A stretch of 64,000 nt of DNA, taken from Nitrosopumilus sp. (GTDB taxonomy: Archaea; Thermoproteota; Nitrososphaeria; Nitrososphaerales; Nitrosopumilaceae). The notes below the pieces were generated by a model. That model made no database searches. It was not told the origin of the DNA and worked only from the letters and a program-made list of their open reading frames with translations. Positions 11,545 to 57,942 of this stretch are shown in pieces (position 1 is the first letter of the stretch; every line of letters starts with the position of its first letter). The stretch lies in the NCBI GenBank assembly GCA_965203315.1, contig CBDBCE010000004.1, forward strand, positions 256,001-320,000, written 5' to 3'. A program made the position numbers and the translations under genes.

Positions 11545-11577
11545 TTTTATAAGATACGGGGGGGGGGGGAGTAATTA
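11545..11577 (+). promoter_or_regulatory. Archaeal promoter with G12 tract between TATA box and TTG start
   Basis: TTTTATAA 11545-11552, G12 11558-11569, TTG 11578. Confidence 0.75.
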
Positions 11578-14500
11578 TTGTATAAGCGTCATCTGATCCC
11601 TGTTCTAGCTTTGGCAATAATTGTACCATTCTTACTAGTTGATCTAGATGATGCGTTTGGGGCGGTTATACCTCCATACAACTATTTGAATCCTGGTTTA
11701 AATCCCTCAACAGGTTGGCGTACTGATACGGCGAGCTTTTCATCTCCTCTTACCATACATGACAACAATAGTGCAACTCTTGTTATTAGTACTAGTTTTA
11801 ATCACATTAGACATGGCGCCGCCTATCAACCTGAAGGAGACATCACCATAGATAAAGGAACAAAGATACTACCAAACTCTGTATTTGCATCAATTGGTTG
11901 TACAGTCCAGTTTGCAGTGACCAACGTTGGTTCCAATCCATCTAATGATGATTCCCTTCATGACTATGCTACTCTACCTACTAACGTATATAGCAACATC
12001 TGGACTAATTTACCTGGCAGTGATGTTAAAGTAATAGGTGTAGACTTTAAAGAATACACCTCTAGTACTTGTGACGTCTCTGCTCTTACCACTAAAAACT
12101 CTACCAATGAACCACTACTCACAGACAAATCGATGAGAGTTACCCTTTATGGTCAGGCTGGCAAAAAGGCGTTCTTTACCTCACACTTTGAAAATATCAC
12201 CACGGCTCAACTGATCCCAGAATGTACTAGTGCAAACTTTGACAACACTACCAAGCAACTCAAAGGACAAACTCGTATGTGTTATGGTACCTATGTTGAT
12301 AGTACTACTAATAATTCTATCTTACCTTATAAGCGTGGTAATCATCTGATTATAATAACAACACAGATTGGAGAGTATGGTGCTACTAGTACAATTCTTC
12401 CACCAGATACACTGCCTATACTACCGCCTAGTGGTTTTCCTACTTCACTCATTACTAATGACGTCCCATACCTGAAAAGCAGTCCTAATATAGACAATGG
12501 AACAATTGGTGCTACCAGTGGCAATCGATATCAGATAGACGGTACTCAGGCCGGTGCACTGGTTAAGGCAGGTGATATCCATATACAAGGTACGACAACG
12601 ATACTCTCAAATCCGATACTCTTAGGTCTCTCAACAACATGCGCTTTTAATATAATGTCACTTCCTACTCTAAGTACTGCTTTTCCGACCAACGCACAAC
12701 CGGCAGGCAACGCAACCAATCCGGCTTCGATGACATTTCGTGGACAATCCAGTTGTGCAAACTGGTCTCCTACACATCCAATGATAACAGACAAAGAGAT
12801 GCGAATCACTCTAACCAATAAAACGGGCAGTAAGGCATGGTATGCATCACCTCGTCAGGGTATAACCGAAGCGCAACCAATTCCTGCGTGTACTACAGAT
12901 ATGATATATCTGAACAATGGTACCCTCAAAGGCAACACAAAGATGTGTTATGGTGTGTATAGTGATCATTTAATAATTATCACAAAGAGATTCTTTGGAC
13001 AATATGGATCTGCTGACACAATCACAACTCCACAGAATCCGGTAGATCTTGATTCAGACAAACCTATGCAAACTATGCCTCCATCCACTACATCACTAGC
13101 TCCTCCACAAAACTTTGCAAGTCTGTCGCCACAGTTTACGGCATTTGGGATCATCCCACGTGGCGCAAGCATAGGTGGCGATATCAACGTGAACACTGAT
13201 ACTCGATTTGGTCCACCAAACAGCAAAGGTGACGTGGTGATACAGGCCAATACAAAGATAAAGCCTGCAGCTCTATTTGACACTGACGTCGGAAGACCTT
13301 GCATCAGCGTCAACTTTAGAGATCCCGCAATCTTGATAACTCCTCCTACTGTTCTACGAGGTGCAGATGCAATGGGATTTGACTTGTCAACATCTACTGG
13401 TCTGACTCCTGTATGTACGATAAATCCTACAGCATTCAACGGAACTCTATTAACAGACAAAGAGCTGCGTATAACACTATATCCAAACGCAACCACCGAT
13501 ACAATAGCGCCGCACTTTTTCTCACAAGAACAAGGTAACTCTGCCACCAAGCCGATACCTCTGTGTACTAGTACGAACATGCACGCCAACCAGACTCTGA
13601 TAGGCGACACAGAGATGTGCTATGGCACACACGACAACAACACCATAATCATATCAAAGCGCATTGGCATATACAGTGCAAATGCACCAACAGGAACTAT
13701 TGTTCCAGATCCTGTATCTACACCAGTAAATACGGTCAACGGTACAATATCGTTCACAGTATCAGGCGCATGGACACCAGGTGAGCAAGCTACAGTATCA
13801 ATATCTGATGCAGATCAAAACAAGAACAGTGCAGCAGACGACGATCAAACTATATCGAATGCAAAATCTAGAATTCCAACACTGATAACAGGTGATCCAC
13901 ATACGCTAAAAGATGGCGATACAGATCAAATATACGCATATACGGGACGAGGCAGCACATGGATACCATTCCTTCAAGATCCCAGTCAAAGCTACATACA
14001 TCAATTAAACTATAAAACAGATGACAGTCATCGTGGTATAATATCGTGGACTGGTGGTGATCTATCAAACAACGCAGAGACTCTATCACTTGGAGGTGCT
14101 GGAGTAGGACCAATGCTTGCGATACCTCTGGGTACGCTAGGTGATCTCCGCGACTCCATAAACGACGACGACCTCAACGGTACAGGCAACTTTACAGGAC
14201 GAAACCTGATAAACTATGACTTTGGTTCACTGACCCCAAACATCCGAAAGAGTCAACTTACCATAGTGAATAGTGCTGGAACTTATTTGTACAGTGGCGT
14301 ATTTGCAAGTGATGATACGAGATTCCCAAACCATAATGCTAAATCTGACATACTAGATATTACCGGTTTTACAGTTGCGCATCAGACTGGTACCGACTAT
14401 GTACTGACAGGCCCTGATCTATTATCTCAACCTAATGTAAACGACAACAGTCAAGTTTTATGGATAATAGAGTTCAGCGAGAGTCTAGTGCTTACAGAAG

Positions 14501-17500
14501 GTATAGAATATCCAATCGTACTGGACTTTATCTCGTACGGATTCTATGGTGATGGTGACAGTACAGATGAGCGTATAGCCAACCAGATAATACGAATACA
14601 AGCAGAAGAGACCGGTGTAAACACTGGTACATTTACAGGTACGATATCATATATCCTGATAAATCAACTAGACACTATAGTACACGATGACATTTACTGG
14701 AATTCAGGACAGACTCAGATACTAGAGACTCCTTACATCTATGAAACAATCACACCAACAGGCAAGGATGCAACATTTATCGCATTTGAAGGCATGACAG
14801 CTCAAGTAAACTATACAGATATCAACTCTAACGGTGTCGATACCGTACTGTCTGCTCAGCAAGATATCATTACAAACACAGGTACGGTATCTCTCAATAA
14901 TACAAGCTATGATACAGGCGATGCAGTAACTATAACACTCGTCGATCCCGATCTAGACAGAGATACTAGCACAGCTGACGTCTATAATGTATTTCAGGAT
15001 AGTACAGATCCCGATAGAGATCTAGTAGGCAAGAACGCACAGGGTTCACAAGAGACTCTACTGTCTGGCAGATCGTTGGGAATGTTACTCGAGGTAACAC
15101 TAAATGGCACAAAATGGCAGTCTGGTACGTGTACTTTATCTGGTGGTACACCAAACGGACTAGGCGGTACAACCTTTGCATTACAAGAGACTGGCCCCAA
15201 TACAGGTACCTTTACGGGTACATTCTATGTACCGGCCCAGTTTTGTGATGGTGCTGATACCGTATATACAAACGGTACAAATATCGGTGTAACATATCTA
15301 GACTTTAGAAATGCTACCGGTAGTATCGTCACAGCTAGTGATACAGCTAGTATCGCTGCAGCTGTGACCACTCCAACTCCCCATGTGACTCCGCCCCCAA
15401 TCACAATTCCTAATAATCTATTAACAATACCGCCACTAACCAATTCGAGCAGTTCTGCTGGAATGAATTTTGATTCAGACACAGAACACGATGGTTCGAT
15501 ATACTATGATGGCGACACTAGGAGATACACAGACGACAGTGGCAACGACGCCACTGCTGATCTCTATCTGGCACGAGGTACTGAAACACTACCACGTGCT
15601 ATGTTTGAAGGCACTGGTGATTATCAGTGTACTGGAAATTTTGAACGTGTTAAATTCCTCGACAAAAAACGTGTTCCAGGCTTTGCTATCCCAGATAATG
15701 TAACTCCTACTAAAAAGGGTAAACTAGCTGCATATGGACTAGATTTTTACAACAAGAGTTCAACAATATCGTGCTCACCAAATCCTGAAGCCGTCTCTGA
15801 TCAAACACTGATAACCGACACTGCACTGCGAATCACCATATATGGCAAGGCAGACAAAAAGCCTATCTACTTTTCACCGCGTGACGGAATACTCAAGGCT
15901 CAACCAATTCCAATGTGTACAACTGATATGATCGACACGAGCAACAACAATGCTCTCAAGGGTAACAATACTGTATGTTATGGCGTACACGGTAATGACA
16001 TGGTCATCGTTACAAAACGACTGACTGGGTTTTATGGTGCAGCAGACAGCGTTACAACACCCGCAAATCCGATAGACCTCAATCCAACTACAGTCATTAA
16101 TATCGATCCAAACATATTGTCTATACCATCAATAATCGAAACGAAACGTGCTGGTCAAGCGACTTTTGAGTCAAATTCAGCTAATGACGGCAAGATATTC
16201 TATGCCGGACCCTCTTCTAGACTCACCGATCATGGTACAAAACCAACTGGTGATATCTATCTCGTACAAGATACTACAACACTCGTACATCCGCTGTTCA
16301 GAGGCGCCGGCGACTATAGATGTTTTGCAAGTTTAGCACATGTTGTAACTCTCAACACAACCATGGTCCCAGGCTTTGCCCTGCCAGATAATATCGTTCC
16401 TAAGACACCTCTGCGTAGTGTATATGCATACGGACTAGACTTTTTTAACAGCATTAGTAATAAAACAGCAAAATGTTCACCCGATCCCGAGGCTGTACAT
16501 AGCCAACCACTAGTAACCGACAAAGAGATGCGATATACGATATATGGCAAGGCAGACAAAAAACCCTACTACTTTTCTCCACGTGACGGAATAACAGAGG
16601 CTCAACCAATTCCAATGTGTACCACCGATATGATCGACACAAGCAATAATGCTCTCAAGGGTAACAATACTGTATGTTTTGGTAGAAACGGCACAGATAT
16701 GGTCATTATCACAAAACGACTGACTGGGTTTTATGGCGTAGCAGACAGCGTTACAACACCTACAGATCCAACAGATCTCAATGCCGCTATACCTGTTGTA
16801 TCTCTTACCAATTCCATAACCGGTAAAATACAAACACACGAATACTATACTGAAAAGATAAACAGTACATCTCTGATAGAATATCCCAACCCTGTCTTTT
16901 TGTACAACACATTACCTCTTTGCGAGGACTCTGTTCATGGCACACATCAGACAATACAAATGACAACAAAAGGAGATATTTTGTTCAAGTATGCTCTAAA
17001 CGGAGTACAGTTTGACGGCAGGCTATTCCTGACTCTGACAGATCATACTCCCAAAAAGACCATATCGCTAGACTCTAACTTTGTCCAACAGCGTGGTAAT
17101 TGGTACAACTATAACAGTACTCTTCCAAAGAGTATACTGGATCAGTTTGGCAACTTTACCAGCATAAACGCCAGACTGTTTGTGACCAATGACACCATAC
17201 CAAACAAAAACATATTCAGCAACAGCTCTACAGGTTCACCTCTATACTATAAAAGCCAGAAAAAGGCTATCATGGAGTTGCCAGATGCTGCAGATACAGT
17301 AACCTTTGTACCTGGTAAAGTACCAGGTGTCCGTGGTAATGTACATGTTCCACAAGGTGATACCGTACCACTAACCGCAGAGATACTGTGCCAGTTTGGT
17401 CATATACAACCATCCCCATCAGCTCAGGTATTTGATCTAGGTATATCTGCAGATAACGCAACAAACGGTCTCGAGATAAAGTATGAATTTACATCAAAGA

Positions 17501-20500
17501 CGTTCTATCAAGGTGCAAAGGAACAGAAACCGACAAAGTTCTTTTGGATTGCAACCGACTCTGACGGCAACTCTGTCAACGGTGATACAACTCGTACCAT
17601 AACCAATTCATACAACTTTGTCATTCCTCAAAGTACATCTGGTACATATGATATAGTGATATACGGCTCTGATGCTGAACGTACACTAATAGGTACACAT
17701 GCAGGTTCGTACACGTTTGCAGCTGCATCTGCACCAGTGACCAACCCTCCATCAACATCTGGTATACTAACGATACCCAAGCCTGACAACCTTGAGATAT
17801 CTACTGATTATGATCTACAGACCATAACCACTACTAATGGTGATCGGCAGACTACGTTCATGGTCCGAGATGAAGCCAATGAAAAGTATGTATTTACTCC
17901 TGTGGCATTTGAGAACGAACCTAATGGCAAGGTAGGTGATGTGTACATACCCACTCCTACACGTACAGAGTCCAACCCAATATTTTTCAACTCTGTAACC
18001 AACTCTTATGCTAATACTGACTGTGATGTAGATGTCTGGTCTATAACAGAGCTGGCCAAGACTACTAACGTTCCATCGTTTACCATACCAAACAACATAA
18101 ACACAACTAGTCCAAACGGTATAATCGGACTGGCACTCGACTTTGGTCCTGTTGGCGGTAGTTGTGCTGTAGATATGGACGTCAAATCACCAAATCCTAT
18201 ATTCACAGAGAAAGAGATGAGATTCACAATATACGACACAACCAAACAACCGTACTATTTCTCACCTCGTGACGATATCACCACAGCTGTCCAGATACCT
18301 GCATGTACCACCGATATGATCCATCTGAACAACCAATCTCTCAAAGGTGACACAAAGATGTGTTATGGCAAGAACGGTGACGATATCGTAATTATAACAA
18401 AGAGAGTTGCATTCTATGCAGTCGCGGGTGTACCACGGGACTCAACTCCGACCAAGGTTATAGATCCAACTCTACTAACAATACCACCACTAGACAACTC
18501 TGTAGTTTTTGGTGCTCTGAACTTTAATTCAGACAGCGCTAATGACGGTCGTCTATTTAGTTCACATCCTGATAATCGATACAGAGATGCTGACAGTACA
18601 GGTGATCTATACATAAAACAGGATACTCGTACACTCGTAACCAAGCTATTCACCGGTGTTGGTGATTATAGTTGTAGTGCAGGAGTTGATAATGTCCCCA
18701 CTTTGATCAATGACAACCGTGTTCCAAATCTTGCAATACCAAATAACATTAACCCCAATACTGCTGAAAGTATAGTTACAGTTGGATTGGACTTTTACAA
18801 CGGCTCTGATAGGACATCATCATGTTCACCAGATATAGAGGCTACTTCTGACCAACCGCTAATAACCGACAAGGATATGAGAATCACCATATACAACAAT
18901 ATAGACAAAAAGCCATACTATTTCTCACCACGTGACGGAATACTAGAGGCACAACCAATTCCTGCATGTACAACTGATATAGTAGATATAAACAACAACC
19001 ATGCCCTCAAAAGTAACAATTCAATGTGTTATGGCGTAAATGGAACTGGAAATACTGCATCTATTGTTATAGTTACAAAACATTTGACTGGATTTTATGG
19101 CGTTGCAGACTCTATCACTCCCCCAACAAATCCTATGAAATTTCAGTATGGCGGAGCAACTGTACCTCCTGTAGATAAAAGTACACTGGTATCAATACCG
19201 CCAATAAGCAGCTTGACACCCAAATTTGGTACTATGCAATTTAGATCAGACACTAGTAATGACGGTCAGATATATCAGGCGCAGCCCACCGCTAGATACT
19301 TCAATTCTGATAAAAAATATGATATCTATATGGAACAGAATGCGCGTACACTCGTAACCGATCTATTCACAGGTGTTGATGATCTTAGTTGCCTTGCAAT
19401 GCTTACTCATATTCCAGGCTTGATCACTGACAACAAGGTTCCAAATCTTGCAGCTCCTTCCAACATACAACCTAGACTTGTTAGCAGTCTAGATGCAGTT
19501 GGACTAGACTTTTACAACGCTACTGGTTCATCATCATGTTTACCAAATATAGAGACTCCTTCTAAACAACCGCTAGTACTCGACAAGGATATGCGAATCA
19601 CCCTTCCTGACACCGGCAACAGTCTCTACTATTTCTCACCACGTGACGGAATAACCGAGGCTCAACCAATTCCTGCATGTACATCTGATATAATCGATAC
19701 AGACAACAACAATGCTCTCAAAGATGGCAATACAATGTGTTACGGCGTAAATGTAACCACAGGTCCGCAATCTTTTGTTGTAATCACAAAGTGTCTGACT
19801 GGATTTTATGGTACAACTGATACACTCTTTGTACCTACAAGATCTGTAAATCCTAACAACATGTGTGGAAGCGGTGACCCTAAAGACAGCGATGATTATC
19901 TGGCCACTGCACCAACCTTTGGCGTCTCACAACTCACAGGTGAACAGCTGGTAACATGTGGTTATAAAATGGACGACACTTGCCGTGATATCACTGCATA
20001 TCATGTCCAGTACGAACGCGACACGATACAAACTAACACGACACACACATTTGCAATAAAGACACTGGCACCAAACATGTTGCACAATGTTATACTGGCA
20101 TTTAGTGTACCAAATGTGGGCGCTCCAGTGAGTACAGCAGAAGCATACATCTCTGTACATCTTGGAATAAACTATAGCGAACCGTCACACCACTATATCA
20201 CAGATGTTACTATACATGACCCAAACAACATCATCGACTATGACACACAAAACACAACAGTATCTGCTGCATCTTGTTCTGGTACCGAGCTACAATGTAC
20301 GCAAATAACACTCCCAGACGTACTATTCCGTGATGTAATGAACCATGAACCATTTGCAATACAAGTAACTGATACTCTACGATTCACATCCATAAACTAC
20401 ATGAACGAAGGTGTCTTTGTTAAAGGTACATCACTAAACGCACCACCAACTGCACAGCCAGGACTCACACTATCTGGTGACGATGGTCGACCAATAAACT

Positions 20501-20835
20501 TGGTGTTGGTCCGTACAGACAAGGTCTCTGATCTATGGGCAGACGCATTCGGCAATACGTGGAGTCGCAACTCGTTTGGTCATTTCATAATAGTACAGTA
20601 TGCACCATACGCAGGTACTACTCCCGTATGTACAGACATCAACGATAGAATATGTGCACCATTCAAGGCTAAACTCGATTGGCACAATCAAAAGATGATC
20701 GAACTACGTGACTCGCTATACGATGCATACAAGACAAAAGCATACGCCGAGATCGACAATATCTTTACCTACGAGTTTGGTGATGTAGACTCTCGCACTA
20801 GAACACTGATCAATCTAGGCTGGCTAACAGAGTAG
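11578..20835 (+). CDS. Giant secreted modular surface protein, 3085 aa
   Basis: Signal peptide; about 8 copies of a Cys-containing ~200-aa module (TDKEMRITIY..YFSPRDGI..AQPIP.CT..CYG..IITKR); an S-layer-like segment; C-terminal domain shared with 57943..62718. Confidence 0.9.
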   Translation: MYKRHLIPVLALAIIVPFLLVDLDDAFGAVIPPYNYLNPGLNPSTGWRTDTASFSSPLTIHDNNSATLVISTSFNHIRHGAAYQPEGDITIDKGTKILPNSVFASIGCTVQFAVTNVGSNPSNDDSLHDYATLPTNVYSNIWTNLPGSDVKVIGVDFKEYTSSTCDVSALTTKNSTNEPLLTDKSMRVTLYGQAGKKAFFTSHFENITTAQLIPECTSANFDNTTKQLKGQTRMCYGTYVDSTTNNSILPYKRGNHLIIITTQIGEYGATSTILPPDTLPILPPSGFPTSLITNDVPYLKSSPNIDNGTIGATSGNRYQIDGTQAGALVKAGDIHIQGTTTILSNPILLGLSTTCAFNIMSLPTLSTAFPTNAQPAGNATNPASMTFRGQSSCANWSPTHPMITDKEMRITLTNKTGSKAWYASPRQGITEAQPIPACTTDMIYLNNGTLKGNTKMCYGVYSDHLIIITKRFFGQYGSADTITTPQNPVDLDSDKPMQTMPPSTTSLAPPQNFASLSPQFTAFGIIPRGASIGGDINVNTDTRFGPPNSKGDVVIQANTKIKPAALFDTDVGRPCISVNFRDPAILITPPTVLRGADAMGFDLSTSTGLTPVCTINPTAFNGTLLTDKELRITLYPNATTDTIAPHFFSQEQGNSATKPIPLCTSTNMHANQTLIGDTEMCYGTHDNNTIIISKRIGIYSANAPTGTIVPDPVSTPVNTVNGTISFTVSGAWTPGEQATVSISDADQNKNSAADDDQTISNAKSRIPTLITGDPHTLKDGDTDQIYAYTGRGSTWIPFLQDPSQSYIHQLNYKTDDSHRGIISWTGGDLSNNAETLSLGGAGVGPMLAIPLGTLGDLRDSINDDDLNGTGNFTGRNLINYDFGSLTPNIRKSQLTIVNSAGTYLYSGVFASDDTRFPNHNAKSDILDITGFTVAHQTGTDYVLTGPDLLSQPNVNDNSQVLWIIEFSESLVLTEGIEYPIVLDFISYGFYGDGDSTDERIANQIIRIQAEETGVNTGTFTGTISYILINQLDTIVHDDIYWNSGQTQILETPYIYETITPTGKDATFIAFEGMTAQVNYTDINSNGVDTVLSAQQDIITNTGTVSLNNTSYDTGDAVTITLVDPDLDRDTSTADVYNVFQDSTDPDRDLVGKNAQGSQETLLSGRSLGMLLEVTLNGTKWQSGTCTLSGGTPNGLGGTTFALQETGPNTGTFTGTFYVPAQFCDGADTVYTNGTNIGVTYLDFRNATGSIVTASDTASIAAAVTTPTPHVTPPPITIPNNLLTIPPLTNSSSSAGMNFDSDTEHDGSIYYDGDTRRYTDDSGNDATADLYLARGTETLPRAMFEGTGDYQCTGNFERVKFLDKKRVPGFAIPDNVTPTKKGKLAAYGLDFYNKSSTISCSPNPEAVSDQTLITDTALRITIYGKADKKPIYFSPRDGILKAQPIPMCTTDMIDTSNNNALKGNNTVCYGVHGNDMVIVTKRLTGFYGAADSVTTPANPIDLNPTTVINIDPNILSIPSIIETKRAGQATFESNSANDGKIFYAGPSSRLTDHGTKPTGDIYLVQDTTTLVHPLFRGAGDYRCFASLAHVVTLNTTMVPGFALPDNIVPKTPLRSVYAYGLDFFNSISNKTAKCSPDPEAVHSQPLVTDKEMRYTIYGKADKKPYYFSPRDGITEAQPIPMCTTDMIDTSNNALKGNNTVCFGRNGTDMVIITKRLTGFYGVADSVTTPTDPTDLNAAIPVVSLTNSITGKIQTHEYYTEKINSTSLIEYPNPVFLYNTLPLCEDSVHGTHQTIQMTTKGDILFKYALNGVQFDGRLFLTLTDHTPKKTISLDSNFVQQRGNWYNYNSTLPKSILDQFGNFTSINARLFVTNDTIPNKNIFSNSSTGSPLYYKSQKKAIMELPDAADTVTFVPGKVPGVRGNVHVPQGDTVPLTAEILCQFGHIQPSPSAQVFDLGISADNATNGLEIKYEFTSKTFYQGAKEQKPTKFFWIATDSDGNSVNGDTTRTITNSYNFVIPQSTSGTYDIVIYGSDAERTLIGTHAGSYTFAAASAPVTNPPSTSGILTIPKPDNLEISTDYDLQTITTTNGDRQTTFMVRDEANEKYVFTPVAFENEPNGKVGDVYIPTPTRTESNPIFFNSVTNSYANTDCDVDVWSITELAKTTNVPSFTIPNNINTTSPNGIIGLALDFGPVGGSCAVDMDVKSPNPIFTEKEMRFTIYDTTKQPYYFSPRDDITTAVQIPACTTDMIHLNNQSLKGDTKMCYGKNGDDIVIITKRVAFYAVAGVPRDSTPTKVIDPTLLTIPPLDNSVVFGALNFNSDSANDGRLFSSHPDNRYRDADSTGDLYIKQDTRTLVTKLFTGVGDYSCSAGVDNVPTLINDNRVPNLAIPNNINPNTAESIVTVGLDFYNGSDRTSSCSPDIEATSDQPLITDKDMRITIYNNIDKKPYYFSPRDGILEAQPIPACTTDIVDINNNHALKSNNSMCYGVNGTGNTASIVIVTKHLTGFYGVADSITPPTNPMKFQYGGATVPPVDKSTLVSIPPISSLTPKFGTMQFRSDTSNDGQIYQAQPTARYFNSDKKYDIYMEQNARTLVTDLFTGVDDLSCLAMLTHIPGLITDNKVPNLAAPSNIQPRLVSSLDAVGLDFYNATGSSSCLPNIETPSKQPLVLDKDMRITLPDTGNSLYYFSPRDGITEAQPIPACTSDIIDTDNNNALKDGNTMCYGVNVTTGPQSFVVITKCLTGFYGTTDTLFVPTRSVNPNNMCGSGDPKDSDDYLATAPTFGVSQLTGEQLVTCGYKMDDTCRDITAYHVQYERDTIQTNTTHTFAIKTLAPNMLHNVILAFSVPNVGAPVSTAEAYISVHLGINYSEPSHHYITDVTIHDPNNIIDYDTQNTTVSAASCSGTELQCTQITLPDVLFRDVMNHEPFAIQVTDTLRFTSINYMNEGVFVKGTSLNAPPTAQPGLTLSGDDGRPINLVLVRTDKVSDLWADAFGNTWSRNSFGHFIIVQYAPYAGTTPVCTDINDRICAPFKAKLDWHNQKMIELRDSLYDAYKTKAYAEIDNIFTYEFGDVDSRTRTLINLGWLTE

Positions 20836-20950
20836 GTTTGTATTCGAGATATGTGATATCAAAAATTGTTCATCATTCATCTGACGTGACATTTACTTTG
20901 TATTGACTATTCAATTTGCTTCTTTTGGCATTTTTAGATAACGTCTCAGC

Positions 20951-21208
20951 GGATCTTTTCGATTTATGTGGAGTGGCGTTTTGTAAGGTTTTTTATAATA
21001 GACTGTATGCGTATTATTAAGAGTACCCATACCAATCATCAAATATGACAACAATGAATCAATTCGCCTCTAGAAATCATGCCTGTGTTTTATTGTACCT
21101 TAAAATGTGCATATGATAAGAAATACGCATATAGTCTAATCTTTCATTATAGAATCTCGTAGTGCTTTTTCTGCAACAATTCGTATCTCATGTAAACCGG
21201 AAAGATCC
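20951..21208. mobile_element. MITE family B copy interrupted by a nested MITE
   Basis: Left half GGATCTTTTCGATTTATGTGG.. and right half ..GTAAACCGGAAAGATCC rejoin into a normal B copy once 21000-21137 is removed. Confidence 0.7.
21000..21137. mobile_element. MITE family C (nested)
   Basis: TIRs AGACTGTATGCGTATT and AATACGCATATAGTCT (1 mismatch), flanked by a short AAT (or TA) duplication. Confidence 0.7.
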
Positions 21209-21619: not shown

Positions 21620-21796
21620 GGTTCTGTTCAATTGACGGGGGTTGAGATCGTGATGACGTTATCTCAAAGAACGTACAATATGAGACTCAAAACAGCAACA
21701 ATTTGCGATAGCCCATATGAGGCCGTTTCCATATTTTGCAAAATTTTTCGAGAATTTTATGCAGAAAATGCCAACCACCATTAATTGAACAGATCC
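21620..21796. mobile_element. MITE family A (IS6-like ends)
   Basis: GGTTCTGTTCAATTG ... AATTGAACAGATCC; reverse orientation relative to the copies at 35902, 38362 and 41300. Confidence 0.85.
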
Positions 21797-38224: not shown

Positions 38225-38651
38225 CATCTACATACTTTGGGTCGGTCACAAACTCATCACAAGATAGAGAGATTCTTTGGAACATTTGAAAATGATGTTG
38301 TACACTACACTTGAGTGAATGAATGTATTGGATACTGTAATGAGCAAAGATTGCATTTTGTGGTTCTGTTCAATTGACGGGGATGGGCATTTTCTGCACA
38401 AAATTCTTGAAAAATTTCGCAAATGTGGAAAAGGTCTCATCTGCTATCGTAAATTGCTACTGTTTTGAGTCACATATTGTACATTCTTTGAGATAGCGTC
38501 ACAACGATTTCAACCCCCCGTAAATTGAACAGAACCCTAGACTCTTCTCAAAGCGTTTAGAGCAACAAAACAAGCCAGTGCTAAAATTTGACAAGACTTC
38601 TAATGAGCAGACCAGACTTCTGAAAGTGTGAAATAATTCTCATTTAAGACA
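38225..38651 (+). pseudogene. Degenerate IS481 remnant (3' end) interrupted by MITE-A
   Basis: GATAGAGAGATTCTTTGGAACATTTGAAAATGA matches the transposase near 3186. TTTAGAGCA..AAACAAGC.AGTGCT and the TIR-like end GAAATAATTCTCATTTAAGACA also match. Confidence 0.8.
38362..38536. mobile_element. MITE family A
   Basis: GGTTCTGTTCAATTG ... AATTGAACAGAACC. Confidence 0.9.
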
Positions 38652-47935: not shown

Positions 47936-47988
47936 GATCTCTTGTGATTATAAAAATTAATTAAGTCTTACTATGGGTTCAAGTTAGT

Positions 47989-49951: not shown

Positions 49952-50075
49952 TGATTGTTGTACAGAATTGTGATCTAGAGATCTGCATTGTCCTTGATAT
50001 TTTGGACATTTCATGTAAGACACATTTTATGTTGACACAACATGTTTTTATTGCATAACAAACAAAGTAAACATT

Positions 50076-50690
50076 ATGGCAATAGATACTACAACACTAG
50101 AGATTAGTGAGCTTGAAAAGTATATTATTCTACTTGTATATGTTGGCGACGAGCCAATATACGGTAGACAGAAACTACAGCTATTGATGTACATGTTGGG
50201 TGACTCATATTCAGAGATACACGATTGGTGTAACTATGCAATAAGAGACGATGGTCCATACAGCGCAGTTTTAGATAATGCTTTGGAGCGTCTAGTACAA
50301 ATGGAACTAGTACAAGAAAAAGACGACACCATTCAATTAACCGATCAAAGCATAGAGTATGCTAGAGTCATTGGAGAAGAGAAAGGTGGATTTCCGGAAA
50401 TTCAAGATATGTTTAACCGAACGATGACATGGGTGTTTGGTAATCATAAAAGAATGCTTAACGATGTAACGCTCCCAGAGATGTTGTCGTATATGTACTG
50501 TGATTATCCAGATATGGCCAAAGGTTCAGCAACTTATAAAAAACTCAAGCCAGATATCAAGGAAAATATAATTTCCATGTACACAAAGGAAAAGATGAGT
50601 TTTGGCAGAGCTGGGGAATTACTCGGAATGCACAAGCACGTAATAATGGATGAGTTGGCCAAGAGAGGATTACTTCGGTTTGGACATTGA
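50076..50690 (+). CDS. wHTH protein with C-terminal UPF0175-like antitoxin domain
   Basis: GRQKLQ..Y..GPYS (SocA/YwgA-like) and MSFGRAGELLGM..ELAKRG. Confidence 0.7.
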   Translation: MAIDTTTLEISELEKYIILLVYVGDEPIYGRQKLQLLMYMLGDSYSEIHDWCNYAIRDDGPYSAVLDNALERLVQMELVQEKDDTIQLTDQSIEYARVIGEEKGGFPEIQDMFNRTMTWVFGNHKRMLNDVTLPEMLSYMYCDYPDMAKGSATYKKLKPDIKENIISMYTKEKMSFGRAGELLGMHKHVIMDELAKRGLLRFGH

Positions 50691-50863
50691 AGATATTTGA
50701 CTCTTCGCCATTGATTGCGATATTTAATCAGTTCCGATACCAATGATCATTTGATTATATTCTGCAACTGAAACATAAAATAACAATGACAAATTTTGTA
50801 TGGGGCGAATTACAAGATGATAAGACACATCTAATTTCATTGATCCGATTCACAATCTGCTGA
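50687..50863 (+). pseudogene. PIN-domain (DUF3368/VapC-like) toxin pseudogene
   Basis: TTG overlaps the antitoxin stop: MKIFDSSPLIAIF..*..ITMTNFVWGEL. In-frame TGA at 50744-50746, then truncated. Confidence 0.7.
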
Positions 50864-50943
50864 TGTAGCACCAACTTTTTGTACTACGTAGCAATTTGGT
50901 ATCAAAAACAAGGCTTAATTACTATCCAATCTGGGTATAGTCT

Positions 50944-52125
50944 ATGAAGGTTCTAATCTTGAGTCTTACTGCAGTATCTATTATCATGTTGTTTGGGTTA
51001 GTAGACTATTCCAATGCACATAGTAATGGTAAAGGCTCATACGGAGATCCTCATTGGCATGATTTTGGTGAACATAAAGTAAAACATACTATTGACTGTG
51101 AATCTCAACAATGGATATTTGAAGGAATAGTAAATCGCAGTGTATCTAGTTATACAATGATCTTTATTACTAGTCATGGAAATATTTTGTATTACGAACC
51201 AATGAATTTTATAAATTCAACATATTTTCGTAACACAATAGACATATCAGGTAAAGAATGGCTTCTAGGATCTAAGTCGTATAAAGGAAAAATTCTTGAT
51301 GATAATTATGAGTTTAATTTTGCCGTTGCCAGTAATGATACATATCCTGCTAGTTTTGGTTCTAACATATACTTCATAAAATGCCCTACACTATATGACC
51401 TTAGAAATTCATACAAACTATTAGAAGACTATAAACAACAATACAATAATCTTAACAGTCAATACCAAGAACTATTGAATCAACCACAGAATCAACATCA
51501 GATTATAGAAACAAGAACTCCAAACGGAACACATGCAAACGGAACTATACATTATGATTATAATTACACTACAAAGACTGGTTATGAACTTGCCAATGAA
51601 CAGATAGATAAACTAGAAACCAAGAAAGATAACCTCAAAGACAAGAAAGACCAATGGAAAGAGAAATTTAAGCAATGCAAAGATGATAGAAAGGAACTTG
51701 AGTCTAGATACCAGCTACTAGAAACCAATCACAACACCACCTTAACTGAACTATCTGAATCTCAAAACAATCTGTATAGAGAACTGGAAATTGATACAAG
51801 ACAAGAACTATACAAACAAGAGTTAGAATTCACAGTATCTTATCTGGAAGCATGTATGAAAGGAAATATGACTGATTCTAAAATCATGTTAGATGATGGA
51901 AACTATGAAGTTGATTTAGAACGATATACTGACCTTTGCAGAACAACAACTAATCTATATGAACTGCAGGATAGGTATGATTATTTAGAAAGAATGTTTT
52001 GGAGACAGAACACCACATCTTCTGAACAACTACAAACCATATTTGAACAACAACTTACCATAGAGAAACTTACTCAAGAACTGAATGAAGCAAAGAAAAA
52101 GATTGAAGAGTTAGAATCACCATGA
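50944..52125 (+). CDS. Secreted coiled-coil protein
   Basis: Signal peptide, globular N-domain, long E/K/Q-rich heptad C-half. Confidence 0.7.
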   Translation: MKVLILSLTAVSIIMLFGLVDYSNAHSNGKGSYGDPHWHDFGEHKVKHTIDCESQQWIFEGIVNRSVSSYTMIFITSHGNILYYEPMNFINSTYFRNTIDISGKEWLLGSKSYKGKILDDNYEFNFAVASNDTYPASFGSNIYFIKCPTLYDLRNSYKLLEDYKQQYNNLNSQYQELLNQPQNQHQIIETRTPNGTHANGTIHYDYNYTTKTGYELANEQIDKLETKKDNLKDKKDQWKEKFKQCKDDRKELESRYQLLETNHNTTLTELSESQNNLYRELEIDTRQELYKQELEFTVSYLEACMKGNMTDSKIMLDDGNYEVDLERYTDLCRTTTNLYELQDRYDYLERMFWRQNTTSSEQLQTIFEQQLTIEKLTQELNEAKKKIEELESP

Positions 52126-52222
52126 CTAGGAAGACTAATCTAGATCACTCAACAGAACTGGATGGTACTAGAACTAGAATGATGGATGCCATTCTTAGCT
52201 ATTTTAACTCGAAACTTTTCCT

Positions 52223-52233
52223 GGGGGGGGGGG
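52223..52233 (+). repeat. G11 homopolymer upstream of mod
   Basis: G11 ends 9 nt before TTG 52243. Confidence 0.9.
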
Positions 52234-52242
52234 CGATTCTAA

Positions 52243-54852
52243 TTGGCAGAACGCAAAAAACCTTCCAAAAAGAAAGTCGAACACTATACACATCCAAATG
52301 AAAAACGACCAAACAATCCCCAAGTTGGACTAGTCACTCCAGATACTGATCCAGATCAGCCGCGCAAAAGATATTCCTTTGATCCTAGAATTGATCCACA
52401 ACTACAATGGTCTGGAAAACAAGAAAATTCCGAGTTTGACGTGGATACTGTTTCATTACATGTTCATGAGAGAATCGATCCAATCACAATTCTTGAAAAA
52501 GTGTTGAAGAAAGAACCACATCAACAACAGTCCATATTTGCATACTTTGAAACACCCGAAAATAATCCTCCTTTACGGGAAGCCATTGAATTTTACAAGC
52601 ATGAGCATGGTTGGGCTAATCGGTTGATTGCAGGCGACTCATTAATTGTCATGAATTCTCTGCTAGAGAAAGAAGGAATGGTGGGGAAAGTTCAAATGAT
52701 CTATATAGATCCACCGTATGGAATCAAATATGGTTCTAACTTTCAACCCTTTGTCAACAAGTATGATGTCAAAGATGGTAAAGATGAAGATTTGACTTCA
52801 GAACCTGAAACACTCAAAGCATTTAGAGACACATGGGAATTAGGCATACATTCCTATCTATCCTATTTGAGACAGAGACTTTTGCTTGTAAGAGAACTCT
52901 TAACTGACTCTGGAAGTTGTTTTGTTCAGATTTCGGACGAAAATGTACATCTAGTAAGAGTGATAATGGACGAAATATTTGGTAGAAGTAATTTTATAAG
53001 CTTGATCACATTTAGACGAAAACCAAATTCAATGGGAGCAAAAATAATGGGTTCAGTTTCAGACCATATAATTTGGTATGCTAAGGATAAAAAACACATT
53101 AAATCACATAAACTGTTTGAGAGCCGTAATCCAGAATTAGGCAAAACATGGAGTTTTATAGAACTATCTAATGGTATAAGAAGGAAATTAACAAAAGAAG
53201 AAATAGAAAAACCAAATTCAATTCCACCTATGAGTAAAATTTTCACGTCGTATAAATTAGCACCATCTGCATTTAGTCAGGAATACACATTTCCTGTTAT
53301 GTATAAAGACAAAAAATATTTACCACCATACACAGGTGGGGGAAGATGCTGGAAAACTACCAAGGAAGGGATGGATGCACTGATAAAGAAAGATAGAGTA
53401 TTGCCATCTGGAGATACACTAAGATTTGTAGGGTATTGGAATGATTTTCCATATGTTGAGATAGATAATTTATGGTATAAAATATCTACAACAGGTAACA
53501 AAATATATGTTGTTGAGACATCTTCTAATACTATTTCACGATGTATATTGATGACTACAGATCCTGGAGATTTAGTTTTAGACATTACATGTGGAAGTGG
53601 AACTACAGCATACACGTCAGAAAAATTAGGAAGGCGTTGGATTACCTGTGATACTTCACGACTTGCAATTACACTAGCTAAACAACGCCTAATGACAGGA
53701 AAATTTGACTATTATGAAATTATGGAACCTACAGAAGGTGTGTCTTCCGGTTTTAAATATGATACGGCACCACACATTACACTTGGAACAATAGCAAATA
53801 ATGAACCACCACTTGAGGAAATTCTTTATGACAAACCAAAAATAGATAAATCAAAAGTACGAATAACTGGTCCATTTACAGTCGAGGCGGTACCATCACC
53901 CACTGTCAAATCGTTAGATGTCTTATCACATGATGGCAATTCACAAAATGTACAACACAGTAACAACTCACCACAAGAGTATTGGCGAGACGAACTGCTC
54001 AAGACAGGAATTAGAGGAAAGAATAAACAAAAGATCGAATTTACTCATGTCGAATCTCATCCTGCAACAAAATGGCTACACGCAGATGCAGAGACAAAAG
54101 AAGACAAACCAAAACGAGTAATGATATCATTTGGACCAGAACATGCGCCACTAGAACAACGTCAGGTCGCATCAGCTATCGAAGAAGCACAATCCATAGT
54201 CCCAAAACCAAAGATGATAATCTTTGCCGCAATGCAGTTTGATCCTGAAGCTGCAAAAGATATCGACGAATTAAAATGGCCAGGAGTCACAGTTCTCAAG
54301 GTGGAGATGAATAAAGATCTCTTGACTAAGGATCTAAAGAAGAAACGTTCCACCAATGAATCCTTTTGGTTAGTGGGGCAACCCGATGTTGAACTAGATC
54401 TAGTCAATGATGTAGATGATGGTGGTAAAAACAGTAGCAAAAAAGATAGTAAAAAGTCTAGTAAAAACGGTAAAGCGAATAGCAAGTCTAGCCACAAAGA
54501 TGACGATGAATCAAAAAGATACATAATTCGTGTTAATGGCTTTGACTATTACAATACAAATACAGACGAAATAGAGTCTGGGGATTCATCAAAGATTGCA
54601 ATGTGGATGCTCGATACTGACTATGATGGACGCAGTGTATATCCGCAACAAGTATTCTTTCCAATGGAAGGAGATAAAGGAGGATGGAGCAAACTAGCAA
54701 AGACACTACAAGCACAAATAGACGATGAATTAATCTCAAAGTATCATGGAACTGTATCGATTCCATTTACAGCAGGACCAAACAAGAGAGCAGCCGTCAA
54801 GATCATCGACGACCGAGGCATAGAGTCACTAAAGATCATACAGTTGGAATAA
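52243..54852 (+). CDS. mod: Type III-like RM N6-adenine methyltransferase (Mod, beta class)
   Basis: YIDPPY precedes LDITCGSGTT; variable TRD region between them; C-terminal AVKIIDDRG.E. Confidence 0.9.
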   Translation: MAERKKPSKKKVEHYTHPNEKRPNNPQVGLVTPDTDPDQPRKRYSFDPRIDPQLQWSGKQENSEFDVDTVSLHVHERIDPITILEKVLKKEPHQQQSIFAYFETPENNPPLREAIEFYKHEHGWANRLIAGDSLIVMNSLLEKEGMVGKVQMIYIDPPYGIKYGSNFQPFVNKYDVKDGKDEDLTSEPETLKAFRDTWELGIHSYLSYLRQRLLLVRELLTDSGSCFVQISDENVHLVRVIMDEIFGRSNFISLITFRRKPNSMGAKIMGSVSDHIIWYAKDKKHIKSHKLFESRNPELGKTWSFIELSNGIRRKLTKEEIEKPNSIPPMSKIFTSYKLAPSAFSQEYTFPVMYKDKKYLPPYTGGGRCWKTTKEGMDALIKKDRVLPSGDTLRFVGYWNDFPYVEIDNLWYKISTTGNKIYVVETSSNTISRCILMTTDPGDLVLDITCGSGTTAYTSEKLGRRWITCDTSRLAITLAKQRLMTGKFDYYEIMEPTEGVSSGFKYDTAPHITLGTIANNEPPLEEILYDKPKIDKSKVRITGPFTVEAVPSPTVKSLDVLSHDGNSQNVQHSNNSPQEYWRDELLKTGIRGKNKQKIEFTHVESHPATKWLHADAETKEDKPKRVMISFGPEHAPLEQRQVASAIEEAQSIVPKPKMIIFAAMQFDPEAAKDIDELKWPGVTVLKVEMNKDLLTKDLKKKRSTNESFWLVGQPDVELDLVNDVDDGGKNSSKKDSKKSSKNGKANSKSSHKDDDESKRYIIRVNGFDYYNTNTDEIESGDSSKIAMWMLDTDYDGRSVYPQQVFFPMEGDKGGWSKLAKTLQAQIDDELISKYHGTVSIPFTAGPNKRAAVKIIDDRGIESLKIIQLE

Positions 54853-57701
54853 TGACCGGCATAGACAATCTAATCATCTGCAATCCGTATAAAGTGCCAT
54901 CAAAGCACTGGAGATATGATCGTACAAAACGCAAGTTTGATCTAGTACCCGGCAGACGTCCAGCTGGATTTTTGATTGCATCCCAAGACAGTAAATCATT
55001 TGATGATCCTGGTGAATTTAAAGAACTGGGACTAGTAAACAATATTCGTGATAGAGTAGACTCGTGGCGAGAGAGAGGCTACCCAAACATCACCGGTATC
55101 ACAAAACAACTCTTGGAGTTTTGGAACGATGAAACAAAACGTGAAGATAGACTATTCTTTTGTCAACTCGAAGCAATAGAGACTCTGATCTGGTTGGTCG
55201 AAGGTCCAGACTCTGACAAACAAGGCATAGACGTTCCATCAGATGGAGGAGAATTTCAGAGACTATGTTGCAAGATGGCGACTGGTACAGGTAAAACAAT
55301 CGTGATGGCAATGTTGATTGCATGGCAGATACTCAACAAGATCACCTATCCAAGAGATACGAGATTCTCAAAGAATGTATTGATCATGGCGCCAGGTCTG
55401 ACTGTAAAGTCCCGACTACAAGTCTTGTATCCAACAGATCCAAACAACTTTTACGAACAATTTAACCTAGTTCCAGAGTCTCTACTGGATAGACTATACC
55501 GTGGAAACCTCATTATCCACAACTGGCATACATTGATGCCAGAGACAGACGCACCTAGAAGTGTAGTAAAGCTGGGCAAAGAGAGTAACACTGTATTTTC
55601 AAAAAGAATACTGAACCACGATCTAAAGAACATCCTAGTTATCAACGATGAGGCACACCATGCATATCGCGCAAGTACAGATCAAGCAAAAAAGATATCC
55701 AACAGAGATCTAGAACGAGACAAACGTTGGATCGAAGGTCTAGACAAGATACACAACGCAAGAAATATTGTACACTGTTTTGATTTCTCTGCAACGCCTT
55801 TTATTCCGTCAGGCAAGAATGTCAGTGAAGATACTCTGTTTGAATGGATAGTCTCTGACTTTTCACTAAACGATGCAATAGAGTCAGGACTTACCAAGAC
55901 ACCGCGAATAGCGATTCGTGACGACAGTGGCAAATTTACCAAAGAGTATCGTTCTAGATTCTATCACATATACAAAGACGACGAGGTAAAACCAGATCTC
56001 AACCGTAACTCTAAGCCACACGAAGAGCTACCAGATCTCGTATCAAACGCCTACAAGATTCTGGGTCAAGACTGGATAGAGACCAAAAAACTCTGGGATG
56101 AAAAGGGCTCCAAGATTCCTCCTGTAATGATCACAGTATGCAACAAGACAAACGCAGCTGCGCGAGTAACATACTCGTTTGAGAAGAATCGTTTTGATCT
56201 ACCAGAACTATCTGTGCCAGAGTATCTGCTACATATCGACTCGACAACGATAGACAAGGCCGAGTCAAAGAGTGCAATAGATATCAGTTCCACAAAACTA
56301 GAAGACAACTTGCGTGTAAAGGTCGACACAGTTGGTAAAGAGGGCGAGGTAGGTGAGCAGATACGAAATATCGTTGCTGTACAGATGCTCTCTGAAGGCT
56401 GGGATGCACGAAACGTCACACATATCATGGGTCTACGAGCATTCTCTAGCCAACTATTATGTGAACAGGTGGTGGGACGAGGTCTCAGGAGAACGTCATA
56501 CGAGATCGATCCAGAGACTCAACTCTTCTCACCCGAGTATGTGAACGTCTTTGGTGTACCATTTACGTTTCTGCCGCACGAGGGTGGTGACGGTACACCT
56601 CCGCCTCCAACCGCCCCAACCACATCTATATTTCCAGATCCAGAAAAGATACAGCACGAGATATCGTGGCCTAACATCGAACGAATCGATATCGATTACA
56701 CAACCAAACTTGAAGTAGATTGGAGCAAGACTAGTAACATCGAACTATACAGTAGTGGTACAGCTACTAGTGTTGATGTGGCAGATGTGATAGAAGGAAA
56801 ACCTCACACAGACAAGATGACAAATATCAGTCTACATAAACAAGAGCGATTGCAGAGGATCATCTTTCTAGCTGCAAAACATGTCTATGAAGAGATGAGA
56901 CCAAACTGGAAAGGTAACAAAGAGCTACTCTTGATTCAGATCGTAAAGCTAGTCGAAGAGTTTATTCATCTAGACAAGATCATCGTGACCGATGTGATAC
57001 ACGATGAGAAACGTAAAAGGATGACGATACTATTCAATATGCAAAAGATAGTGTCACATGTATGCAAAAGCATCAAAGACAACAACATCGATTCAAGACG
57101 TATTCACTTGAACTCCAAAAAACCAATAAAATCTACGTCTGATATGCGTCCTTGGTCTACAAAAAAGCCTGCCGAGTATACTACAAAATCACACATCAAC
57201 ATGGCAGTATACGACTCTACATGGGAGATGAGCACAGGACAAGAGCTAGAGAGAAACAAGAGTGTGGTATCTTGGGTTCGAAACGCTAGGATCGGCTTTA
57301 ACATAAAGTATCTCTTCAACGGCATAACACATGACTATTATCCAGATTTCATGATCAGATTAAAGAACAACATTACACTAGTTTTAGAGATAAAGGGAAA
57401 AGATGATGCACAGAATAAAGAGAAACGCAAGTATCTTGCAGAGTGGATCGATATTGTAAACGCAACTGGTGTATATGGAACATGGTCGTGGGACGTAGCG
57501 TTTAGTCCAGGTGAGGTTCGTGGAATCATTGCCAAACATAGTTCGTCTAGCGTATCTGCAAACGAGTATACTAGGTGCCCAAAGTGTCACAAATCAGCAG
57601 AGTCTAGACAAGATATCGAGCGAGATTTTGGATTTCGAAACATTGACGGAATCATCAGACCGCAATCATGGTGCAGGTCTTGCAGACGATCAAATGTATA
57701 G
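54852..57701 (+). CDS. res: Type III-like restriction endonuclease/helicase (Res)
   Basis: MATGTGKT, DEAHH, SAT, EGWDA, QVVGRGLR, YPDF..LEIKG nuclease motif; overlaps the mod stop. Confidence 0.9.
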   Translation: MTGIDNLIICNPYKVPSKHWRYDRTKRKFDLVPGRRPAGFLIASQDSKSFDDPGEFKELGLVNNIRDRVDSWRERGYPNITGITKQLLEFWNDETKREDRLFFCQLEAIETLIWLVEGPDSDKQGIDVPSDGGEFQRLCCKMATGTGKTIVMAMLIAWQILNKITYPRDTRFSKNVLIMAPGLTVKSRLQVLYPTDPNNFYEQFNLVPESLLDRLYRGNLIIHNWHTLMPETDAPRSVVKLGKESNTVFSKRILNHDLKNILVINDEAHHAYRASTDQAKKISNRDLERDKRWIEGLDKIHNARNIVHCFDFSATPFIPSGKNVSEDTLFEWIVSDFSLNDAIESGLTKTPRIAIRDDSGKFTKEYRSRFYHIYKDDEVKPDLNRNSKPHEELPDLVSNAYKILGQDWIETKKLWDEKGSKIPPVMITVCNKTNAAARVTYSFEKNRFDLPELSVPEYLLHIDSTTIDKAESKSAIDISSTKLEDNLRVKVDTVGKEGEVGEQIRNIVAVQMLSEGWDARNVTHIMGLRAFSSQLLCEQVVGRGLRRTSYEIDPETQLFSPEYVNVFGVPFTFLPHEGGDGTPPPPTAPTTSIFPDPEKIQHEISWPNIERIDIDYTTKLEVDWSKTSNIELYSSGTATSVDVADVIEGKPHTDKMTNISLHKQERLQRIIFLAAKHVYEEMRPNWKGNKELLLIQIVKLVEEFIHLDKIIVTDVIHDEKRKRMTILFNMQKIVSHVCKSIKDNNIDSRRIHLNSKKPIKSTSDMRPWSTKKPAEYTTKSHINMAVYDSTWEMSTGQELERNKSVVSWVRNARIGFNIKYLFNGITHDYYPDFMIRLKNNITLVLEIKGKDDAQNKEKRKYLAEWIDIVNATGVYGTWSWDVAFSPGEVRGIIAKHSSSSVSANEYTRCPKCHKSAESRQDIERDFGFRNIDGIIRPQSWCRSCRRSNV

Positions 57702-57908
57702 TGCGAGTCTTTTTAACTTGCGGTGTACAGATCTCTCCGATTTACATGGGGTGGCATTTTACAAGACTTGTCCGCCCCTATCAAGACTTGTACTTTTTTT
57801 TTCTGTTAAAATTCTATCTCAAACCGAAGGGATTCTCTCAAAGCGTTTTTGTGTTTGTTTCTTGAATTGATGCCGTACCAGAACAGTGTACTAGAACCTA
57901 CAAGATAC

Positions 57909-57942
57909 TTTTATAAGATACATGGGGGGGGGGGAGTAATTA
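57909..57942 (+). promoter_or_regulatory. Archaeal promoter with G11 tract between TATA box and TTG start
   Basis: TTTTATAA 57909-57916, G11 57924-57934, TTG 57943; homologous to 11545-11577. Confidence 0.75.

Follow-up and report, generated by a model that had tools for sequence, protein, structure and literature searches.

Multi-locus phase variation by repeat slippage is commonly treated as a hallmark of host-adapted bacterial pathogens. At porA and opc in Neisseria, fim in Bordetella and hif in Haemophilus, the slippage-prone repeat is part of the promoter and alters transcription from outside the coding region; bacterial promoter repeats vary the distance between the -35 and -10 elements which is read by sigma-70. 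The closest archaeal precedent known to us is Pyrobaculum aerophilum, which reportedly lacks mismatch repair and carries G/C runs of variable length, said to have been interpreted as a mutator phenotype by Fitz-Gibbon et al. in PNAS in 2002. Here, long poly-G tracts are described in a 64,000-nt stretch of DNA (the window; positions 256001-320000 of contig C5) and in the remaining genome of the Nitrosopumilus sp. from which it derives (genome G000). Two of the three tracts of the window occupy the spacer that separates TATA box and start codon in genes for giant secreted proteins, and the third is found upstream of a DNA methylase gene, mod. In the light of the genome-wide survey given below, we consider it highly probable that such tracts are contingency loci.

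According to the available text of a 2025 review, multi-locus phase-variable genomes are apparently restricted to pathogens, and archaeal surveys are called for (PMC11868660). The accessible parts of reviews on phase variation and on archaeal restriction-modification give no archaeal example (PMC11868660, PMC10609329, PMC13076061), and in the limited literature collection searched, no paper connected phase variation or homopolymers with Nitrososphaer* or with archaea that oxidise ammonia. A 2025 preprint states in its accessible portion that contingency loci have already been described in archaea, citing its references 13-15; the work of Orsi et al. (2010) concerned short A/T tracts in coding genes.

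Poly-G tracts of the window and the genome

On either strand of the window, only three G/C runs of at least 8 nt exist, all of them poly-G on the + strand: G12 at 11558-11569, G11 at 52223-52233 and G11 at 57924-57934. All 13 overlapping 8-mer G/C matches of the window fall inside these tracts, as compared to an expected number of 0.08, and none of 100 shuffled sequences reached 13. Each tract is followed, after 8, 9 and 8 nt, respectively, by a TTG codon (at 11578, 52243 and 57943) with which an open reading frame (ORF) of 3085, 869 or 1591 amino acids (aa) begins. Hence, a preliminary description of the window was exact regarding the coordinates of the three long G runs, their sole status and their distance of 8-9 nt from TTG starts. 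Since an in-frame TAA is located between tract and TTG in all three genes, each tract lies outside the coding sequence, whatever its length. Translation from an upstream start reading through the tract, which was considered for the three genes, is ruled out by the same stop codons.

The first and the third of these ORFs, both on the + strand, belong to a family of giant secreted proteins, termed family A in the following. The 3085-aa protein (11578-20835), with TTG as start codon, carries a signal peptide and, at its C-terminus, a conserved domain of about 350 aa. Its TATA box, TTTTATAA, is found at 11545-11552, and the G12 tract begins after a further 5 nt, so that the spacer from the end of the box to the TTG amounts to 25 nt (GATAC, G12 and AGTAATTA). 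Upstream of the 1591-aa gene (57943-62718), the box TTTTATAA at 57909-57916 is followed by the G11 tract after 7 nt, resulting in a spacer of 26 nt (GATACAT, G11 and AGTAATTA). Both spacer lengths are those previously given for the two surface genes. About 170 nt of upstream sequence are conserved between the two copies, and the box together with its flanks (AAGATAC on both sides) recurs in 15 of 15 family-A paralogues.

G000 comprises 2.47 Mb on seven contigs with 39% G+C and a completeness of 99.98%. Matches to archaeal small-subunit rRNA (1437 bits) and archaeal amoA (387 bits) identify it as the genome of an ammonia-oxidising archaeon. Genome-wide, counts of G/C homopolymers drop up to lengths of 7-8 nt and then show a second mode of 38 tracts of 9-17 nt. 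This bimodal distribution, like the count in the window, sets the long tracts apart as a class of their own beyond chance. For classification, each tract was oriented as G, and its flanks and downstream frames were read. A total of 22 tracts are flanked by a TATA-like box on one side and, on the other, by the start of a gene whose product has a signal-peptide-like N-terminus; 14 of these precede members of family A, three precede genes of a coiled-coil secreted family (class C), two those of small secreted proteins (class D), and three further genes for secreted proteins, of which one has poly-C on its sense strand. One further tract is that upstream of the window mod. Five tracts lie inside genes and coincide with a split of the reading frame, the signature of frameshifting. 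The genes concerned are those of a second N6_N4 methylase (151.5 bits; C1:697399, C10 with split frames), of a family-2 glycosyltransferase (GT2, 123.7 bits) and of a group-1 glycosyltransferase (GT1, 34.3 bits), the latter with the tract at its 5' end, furthermore a frame of 1766 codons for a giant secreted protein, in which the ATG is out of frame at the present length of G12, and one gene without assigned function. Eight tracts are found at one end of elements of about 170 nt resembling miniature inverted-repeat transposable elements (MITEs), and two fall in none of these classes. Pfam matches among the tract targets are PF01555 (twice), PF00535 and PF00534.

Most tracts appear to serve surface, glycosylation and restriction-modification targets, namely genes encoding secreted proteins of surface type, glycosyltransferases and DNA methylases. 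Thus, a scan for runs of at least nine G with classification of the downstream genes reveals a strongly non-random placement at the classic phase-variable gene classes. The view of the tracts as a feature of the TATA-to-start spacer, which had been derived from the window, holds for 22 of the 38, yet not for the eight at MITE ends or the five intragenic frameshift tracts. A change in length would be expected to alter expression at the spacer, intragenic and mod tracts, but not at the eight MITE tracts or the two remaining ones.

Family A itself comprises 15 members of 583-3085 aa which share the signal peptide and the C-terminal domain and differ in the middle part; the fifteenth member has only G7 upstream. 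A Pfam search with family A found no family, and a homologue search returned only unnamed proteins of G000 and of ENA contigs with 72-75% identity. CBM96 clusters obtained from the ESM Atlas reached a score of 0.83, below the level of 0.9, and were taken as no evidence.

Spacing between TATA box and start codon

Upstream of 1563 long ORFs throughout the genome, TATA-like 7-mers are concentrated at 20-26 nt from the first ATG and hardly occur outside this range, and the amoA promoter displays 24 nt between box and start. Leaderless promoters are expected to show a spacing of about 22-26 nt, which is matched by the genomic peak, by amoA and by the two giant genes of the window with 25 and 26 nt. 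A spacing of 20-26 nt is the signature of leaderless mRNAs, and its presence in G000 agrees with GeneMarkS-2, which, in the available text of that study, places 11 of 11 Thaumarchaeota in the leaderless group (PMC6028130). The leaderless promoter geometry that had been presumed for the window is therefore seen in the promoters of the genome, and the mRNAs of the spacer-tract genes are probably leaderless. A TATA-like box (TTTATAA, GTTATAA or TTTATAT) precedes the tract by 0-7 nt in all 22 spacer promoters, which belong to at least six unrelated sequence families, and the strict pattern TTATAA-N0-8-G9 occurs at 18 sites of G000, as compared to none for the reversed control pattern. Among the 22 promoters, 17 have a box-to-start distance of 20-26 nt, the other five displaying 27, 27, 29, 31 and 40 nt. 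Within family A, the spacings are 24 (twice), 25 (five times), 26 (five times), 27 and 31 nt, and the G7 member has 19 nt.

For these promoters, the following mechanism can be envisaged. TBP and TFB would set the transcription start at a fixed distance of about 23-24 nt past the TATA box, the tract would occupy approximately positions -19 to -8, and the A/T-rich 6-9 nt behind the tract would provide the melted region and the initiator. With the start site fixed from the TATA box, gain or loss of a G would move the start codon relative to the transcription start. At the same time, tract length would alter the G:C share of the melted region, and expression might be possible only in a narrow range of tract lengths. 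That tract length alters expression, and by which step, is our inference. Provided that the tracts are contingency loci, the odds that the 22 spacer tracts operate through such a promoter-register mechanism appear nearly balanced, with doubt slightly outweighing confidence. The direction of switching has to be revised: loss of Gs had been proposed to move the start site past the TTG, but the two surface genes, with spacers of 25 and 26 nt, are at the upper edge of the 20-26 nt range and would be carried beyond it sooner by one or two additional G than by a loss, which would have to amount to 6-7 nt.

The main rival explanation assigns the tract to the leader of an mRNA which originates from an upstream promoter. 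Here, the tract could act as a Shine-Dalgarno-like element or be recognised by a small RNA; its length would tune translation weakly or not at all, and the TATA-like box next to it would not serve as promoter. The 3' ends of the tracts, which for the most part lie 5-13 nt and mostly 6-9 nt before the start codon, are indeed placed at Shine-Dalgarno spacing as well, and GGGGG could pair with the CCUCC held by the 16S rRNA 3' end (...GATCACCTCCT); Shine-Dalgarno use in the genome is weak, with a GGAG peak at -12. Among the 15 genes of family A, eight have a GGAG made up of the last G residues of the tract and the AG behind it, and in one more, GGAG is part of an extra AGGGAG between tract and TTG. 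The TTG or GTG starts of these genes and the upstream conservation between the two window copies point in the same direction, and a bacterial precedent is given by the G-repeat in the leader of Helicobacter pylori tlpB, described in the accessible part of the source as target of the small RNA RepG (PMC8295292). Against this stand the TATA-like boxes directly upstream of the tract in unrelated promoter families and the agreement of their distance to the start codon with the leaderless range, amoA included. Moreover, transcription starting about 23 nt past the box would begin downstream of the tract, which would then not be part of the mRNA, and a Shine-Dalgarno sequence at the 3' end of the tract stays put when the length changes, which leaves no reason for tracts of 11-15 nt. 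Overall, we regard a role of the tract in an mRNA leader as unlikely.

As a further possibility, the tract might be an invariable structural part of the promoter (a G-quadruplex or a rigid G:C block, for instance) or a regulator site; in this case, the presence of the tract would matter and not its exact length. Across the promoter families, the tract keeps its position with respect to the TATA box, and palindromes upstream of several family-A promoters suggest that conventional regulation is also involved. Yet lengths range from 11 to 15 nt among near-identical paralogous promoters, one member having G7, and in one of the samples compared below, the mod tract is shorter by 3 nt. Furthermore, the intragenic tracts of G000 and of its sister species (G017) make sense only as frameshift switches, and none of eight Mod homologues examined carries a G/C run upstream of the gene at the site of the mod tract. 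An element of fixed length is therefore very improbable.

The mod locus deviates from the family-A promoters. The gene encodes an N6/N4 DNA methylase of 869 aa (52243-54852, + strand; PF01555, 114.5 bits) and directly adjoins a res-like gene for a ResIII helicase of 949 aa (54852-57701, + strand; PF04851, 41.1 bits), in which a TnsA-like endonuclease match (PF08722, 21.6 bits) remains weak and below cut-off. A methylase with an adjacent res gene, as is typical of phasevarions, is thus present. In contrast, a repeat inside the mod reading frame is found in the second methylase at C1:697399 and not in the window mod: the in-frame TAA at 52240-52242 separates tract and TTG, and no upstream start enters the mod frame at any tract length. 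The nearest TATA-like motif, TTTTAAC at 52202-52208 (+ strand), is 34 nt away from the TTG, whereas the genomic distance of TTTTAA[ACT] to ATG peaks at 21-25 nt. A transcription start about 23 nt past this motif would fall in the tract, at its end, or just behind it. Hence, the leaderless geometry does not fit mod.

A paralogue of mod at C1:666080, 68% identical to the window mod, shares the arrangement of a TTG start preceded by TAA. About 80 nt upstream of it, a perfect 13-nt tandem repeat of 16.3 copies is located (C1:665779-665990; L112:1200-1411), and the 5' ends of Mod homologues in other species bear 12-nt and 11-nt repeats. Other perfect repeat arrays of G000 are TATCCAT with 10-22 copies at three loci, a second 13-mer with 16 copies and CTGTC with 68 copies (sites at C1:243863, C1:723163, C5:239172, C1:1264231 and C1:1677323); in addition, long (TG)n stretches occur on the small contigs C2 and C3.

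Tract length, relatives and mutational background

Tract length was compared over window positions 48001-64000 in contigs of four public runs (X1, X3, X4 and X6) from three studies, X1 and X3 being two samples of one study; such contigs compare samples and not variation within a culture. The mod tract is G11 in X1 (5716-nt contig) and X4 but G8 in X3, in which a 5713-nt contig without three of the G at 52223 accounts for a depth of 350.9 of 350.9, and the G8 and G11 versions show no other difference over 5.7 kb. For the tract at 57924, G11 was found in X1 (record 5) and X6 (record 25); the X3 contig begins inside this tract, and X4 record 23 displays 16 other letters and 20 gaps there. Minority contigs with one letter missing at 57923 or 57936 were not counted, as they probably represent paralogous promoters, of which about 14 near-identical copies exist. 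Of the two tracts compared, that of mod thus differs in length between samples, and that at 57924 is G11 in both clear runs.

The same data bear on a possible origin of the runs as artefacts of sequencing or assembly. Most sequencing chemistries are prone to errors at homopolymers, and some contigs of relatives (G015) end at tracts. However, the G11 at 52223 (X1, X4) and the G11 at 57924 (X1, X6) are reproduced without gaps in independent runs across the three studies, and the tracts recur in fixed sequence contexts, which renders artefacts, named beforehand as a possible refutation, next to impossible.

Within the 1591-aa family-A gene (58500-62500), the public runs reveal alternative contig paths with clustered differences, e.g. 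ten changes at 58537-58620 in part of X1 and all of X3 and X4. These could be due to cross-mapping of paralogues or to recombination between family members sharing their ends. Between the two family-A genes, upstream of the mod region, a secreted coiled-coil protein of 393 aa is encoded at 50944-52125 (+ strand). Its class C-type signal peptide style and C-terminal ...KKKIEELESP make it a relative of the tract-bearing class C genes elsewhere in the genome, itself without upstream poly-G; a Pfam search of its product found no family. One X1 contig omits 604 nt inside this ORF, from 50996 to 51601.

Among relatives, 13 of the 24 genus genomes sampled contain tracts of at least 10 nt, as do two of 16 other families of the order. 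Counts amount to 23 in the sister species G017, 16 in G002, 13 in G009, 11 in G018 and 4 in G021, and the complete genus genomes G003, G012, G014 and G023 contain no tract of at least 10 nt. Of 200 further genomes of the phylum, 54 have tracts of at least 11 nt, the highest count being 14 as compared to 33 in G000. In one other family of the phylum (f25, genus g38), 14 of the 17 genomes sampled carry tracts of at least 11 nt, several of them 5-13 each; hence, multi-tract genomes are not confined to this genus. The strict promoter pattern TTATAA-N0-8-G9 was found at a single site in one of 80 other genus genomes. The family-A promoter pattern had no match in metagenome contigs and two unrelated ones in genome contigs (Shewanella surugensis and Helicobacter rodentium), G000 itself perhaps being excluded from these scans. 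A scan for related loci with the family-A C-terminal domain gave 53 pattern matches, none of which was confirmed.

The C-terminal domain of family A occurs in 12 of 100 other genus genomes, with 18 matches in G017, where open frames extend up to 6655 aa. In this sister species, 20 of the 23 tract regions were examined and 11 of those 20 interpreted. Nine of the 20 are situated in the 5' coding region of giant family-A-type genes (seven in frame, two out of frame), between a short upstream frame with ATG or TTG start and the segment encoding the signal peptide, and two are located in DNA methylase genes with a TSPPYY motif. In G009, a family of small secreted proteins carries tracts directly past the ATG. 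The occurrence of poly-G in the same gene classes, but at different positions in each species, is hard to explain without selection for switching.

A further explanation regards the tracts as a mutational by-product with no adaptive role. In the absence of mismatch repair, G runs would expand in a strand-biased manner, spread via MITEs and gene duplication and persist only where they are largely harmless, between genes or at gene ends. Searches for MutS domain V and NucS/EndoMS, which matched 11 and 6 of 14 control genomes, respectively, indeed found neither of them in the 99.98% complete genome. The MITE-like families have 17-nt terminal inverted repeats followed by G4-6, with about 100 copies genome-wide, including sites at 21620, 38362-38536 and 41474 of the window (C5:277620, 294362-294536 and 297474). 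Their terminal repeat holds the TATA-like TTTTAAC 5 nt before the G run, a layout as in the family-A promoter, and in eight copies the run at one particular end has grown to G11-17. Moreover, tracts of at least 11 nt exist in 55 of 201 sampled phylum genomes (G000 included), and the tracts of family A may share a single origin. The distribution of tracts over strands also fits: on C1, 12 tracts have G and 12 have C on the + strand in separate blocks, and in G017, G009 and G002 the strand is linked to orc1. Nevertheless, 29 of the 38 tracts are associated with just a few gene classes (23 secreted proteins, two methylases, two glycosyltransferases and two split genes linked to a methylase or glycosyltransferase), too concentrated for a random intergenic sample, the same gene family has its tracts at a different position in G017, and the complete genus genomes named above are free of such tracts. 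In addition, only one of the two equivalent MITE ends expands, which strand bias alone does not explain, and in G018 just 6 of 11 tracts obey the replichore rule. A purely mutational origin of the tracts is therefore improbable as well.

Regarding the strand blocks themselves, those with G on the + strand of C1 extend over 37-697 kb and those with C over 708-1254 kb, followed by a mixed region; MITE-borne tracts obey the blocks too, and the overall bias in gene orientation is only about 53-54%. An orc1/cdc6 gene is located at C1:1.28 Mb, at the end of a strand block. Assuming a single origin at orc1 and a terminus opposite to it, G is on the strand running 5'-3' away from orc1 for 22 of 23 tracts in G017, 13 of 13 in G009, 13 of 16 in G002 and 6 of 11 in G018. 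A single replication origin was rejected as explanation of the blocks in G000, where the switch at about 700 kb is only 0.58 Mb from orc1 and four of the seven tracts right of orc1 fit. The blocks may reflect co-orientation of genes with replication or strand-specific slippage. Among mobile elements, the window further contains an ORF for an IS481-family transposase at 2470-3396, whose score of 181 bits against NF033577 is below the model cut-off of 224.

Assessment and comparison with known systems

Taken together, a genome-wide set of slippage-prone poly-G/C contingency loci, with the spacer tracts residing in probable leaderless promoters, is in our opinion the best overall explanation and somewhat favoured by the evidence. 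The central proposal of the preliminary description, a switch resembling bacterial contingency loci but working through leaderless-promoter geometry, is thus partly supported, namely by the non-random tracts, the target classes, the difference in length at mod and the 17 of 22 spacings, and does not fit the geometry of mod.

Several observations weigh against this explanation. A difference in length was detected at only one of the two tracts compared, and only between samples. Within family A, no significant compensation between flank and tract length is found (r = -0.32, p = 0.26; permutation p = 0.14). TTG starts, as used by family A, are reported to be poor on leaderless mRNAs in work on haloarchaea, and the tract ends are equally compatible with Shine-Dalgarno spacing. 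The promoter-register mechanism does not fit well to mod, for which the mode of action is less evident. All 14 tracts of family A may go back to a single ancestral promoter, which would reduce the independent origins from 22 to about nine. Finally, MITE tracts without a gene and the replichore-like strand blocks point to a mutational component.

On balance, it is conceivable, albeit rather tentative, that a free-living nitrifying archaeon runs a phasome of at least 30 loci with an archaea-specific TATA-initiator register switch, in which one slipped G would turn giant surface proteins on, off or down. The tracts, being on one strand relative to replication, might thereby tune slippage, with defence against viruses or grazers as the most plausible purpose. 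G000 displays the full signature, namely a separate class of long G tracts, the classic targets, no recognisable mismatch repair, a difference in length between samples and a sister species switching the same family differently. If this holds true, multi-locus phase variation would extend beyond host-associated bacteria, and populations of nitrifiers would diversify their cell surface and DNA methylation stochastically. As ammonia-oxidising archaea are central to the global nitrogen cycle, this would bear on virus-host dynamics and on the reading of metagenomic 'strain variation'. The spacers would furthermore constitute a natural allele series for studying how TATA-to-start distances are measured by archaeal and Pol II-type machinery.

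In comparison with described systems, the tract set of G000 resembles the phasomes of Campylobacter jejuni and Helicobacter, for which the available text of the respective studies reports tens of G/C tracts off the background length distribution, the absence of MutS/MutL-type repair, surface structures, glycosyltransferases and restriction-modification systems as targets, and paralogues mixed in and out of frame (PMC6321876, PMC8437040, PMC2823697). In those bacteria, however, the tracts are mostly intragenic, whereas 22 of 38 are located in the TATA-to-start spacer in G000, and the carriers are host-associated bacteria in contrast to a free-living nitrifying archaeon. With type III mod phasevarions, the window mod has in common the N6/N4 methylase adjoining a ResIII helicase gene, a simple repeat at the 5' end and a difference in length between samples, but its tract is separated from the TTG by an in-frame TAA and is not part of the reading frame.

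As in Pyrobaculum aerophilum, where reportedly an archaeon of a lineage with leaderless mRNAs and without mismatch repair carries variable G/C runs, slippage-prone runs are found in G000; those of P. aerophilum, however, are not said to be promoter switches tied to gene classes. The promoter repeats of Neisseria, Bordetella and Haemophilus share with the spacer tracts a slippage-prone repeat in the core promoter, outside the coding sequence. The archaeal tract differs from them in being placed between TATA box and start site, where a change in its length would leave promoter recognition unchanged and instead shift the transcription start relative to the start codon, along with the composition of the melted region.

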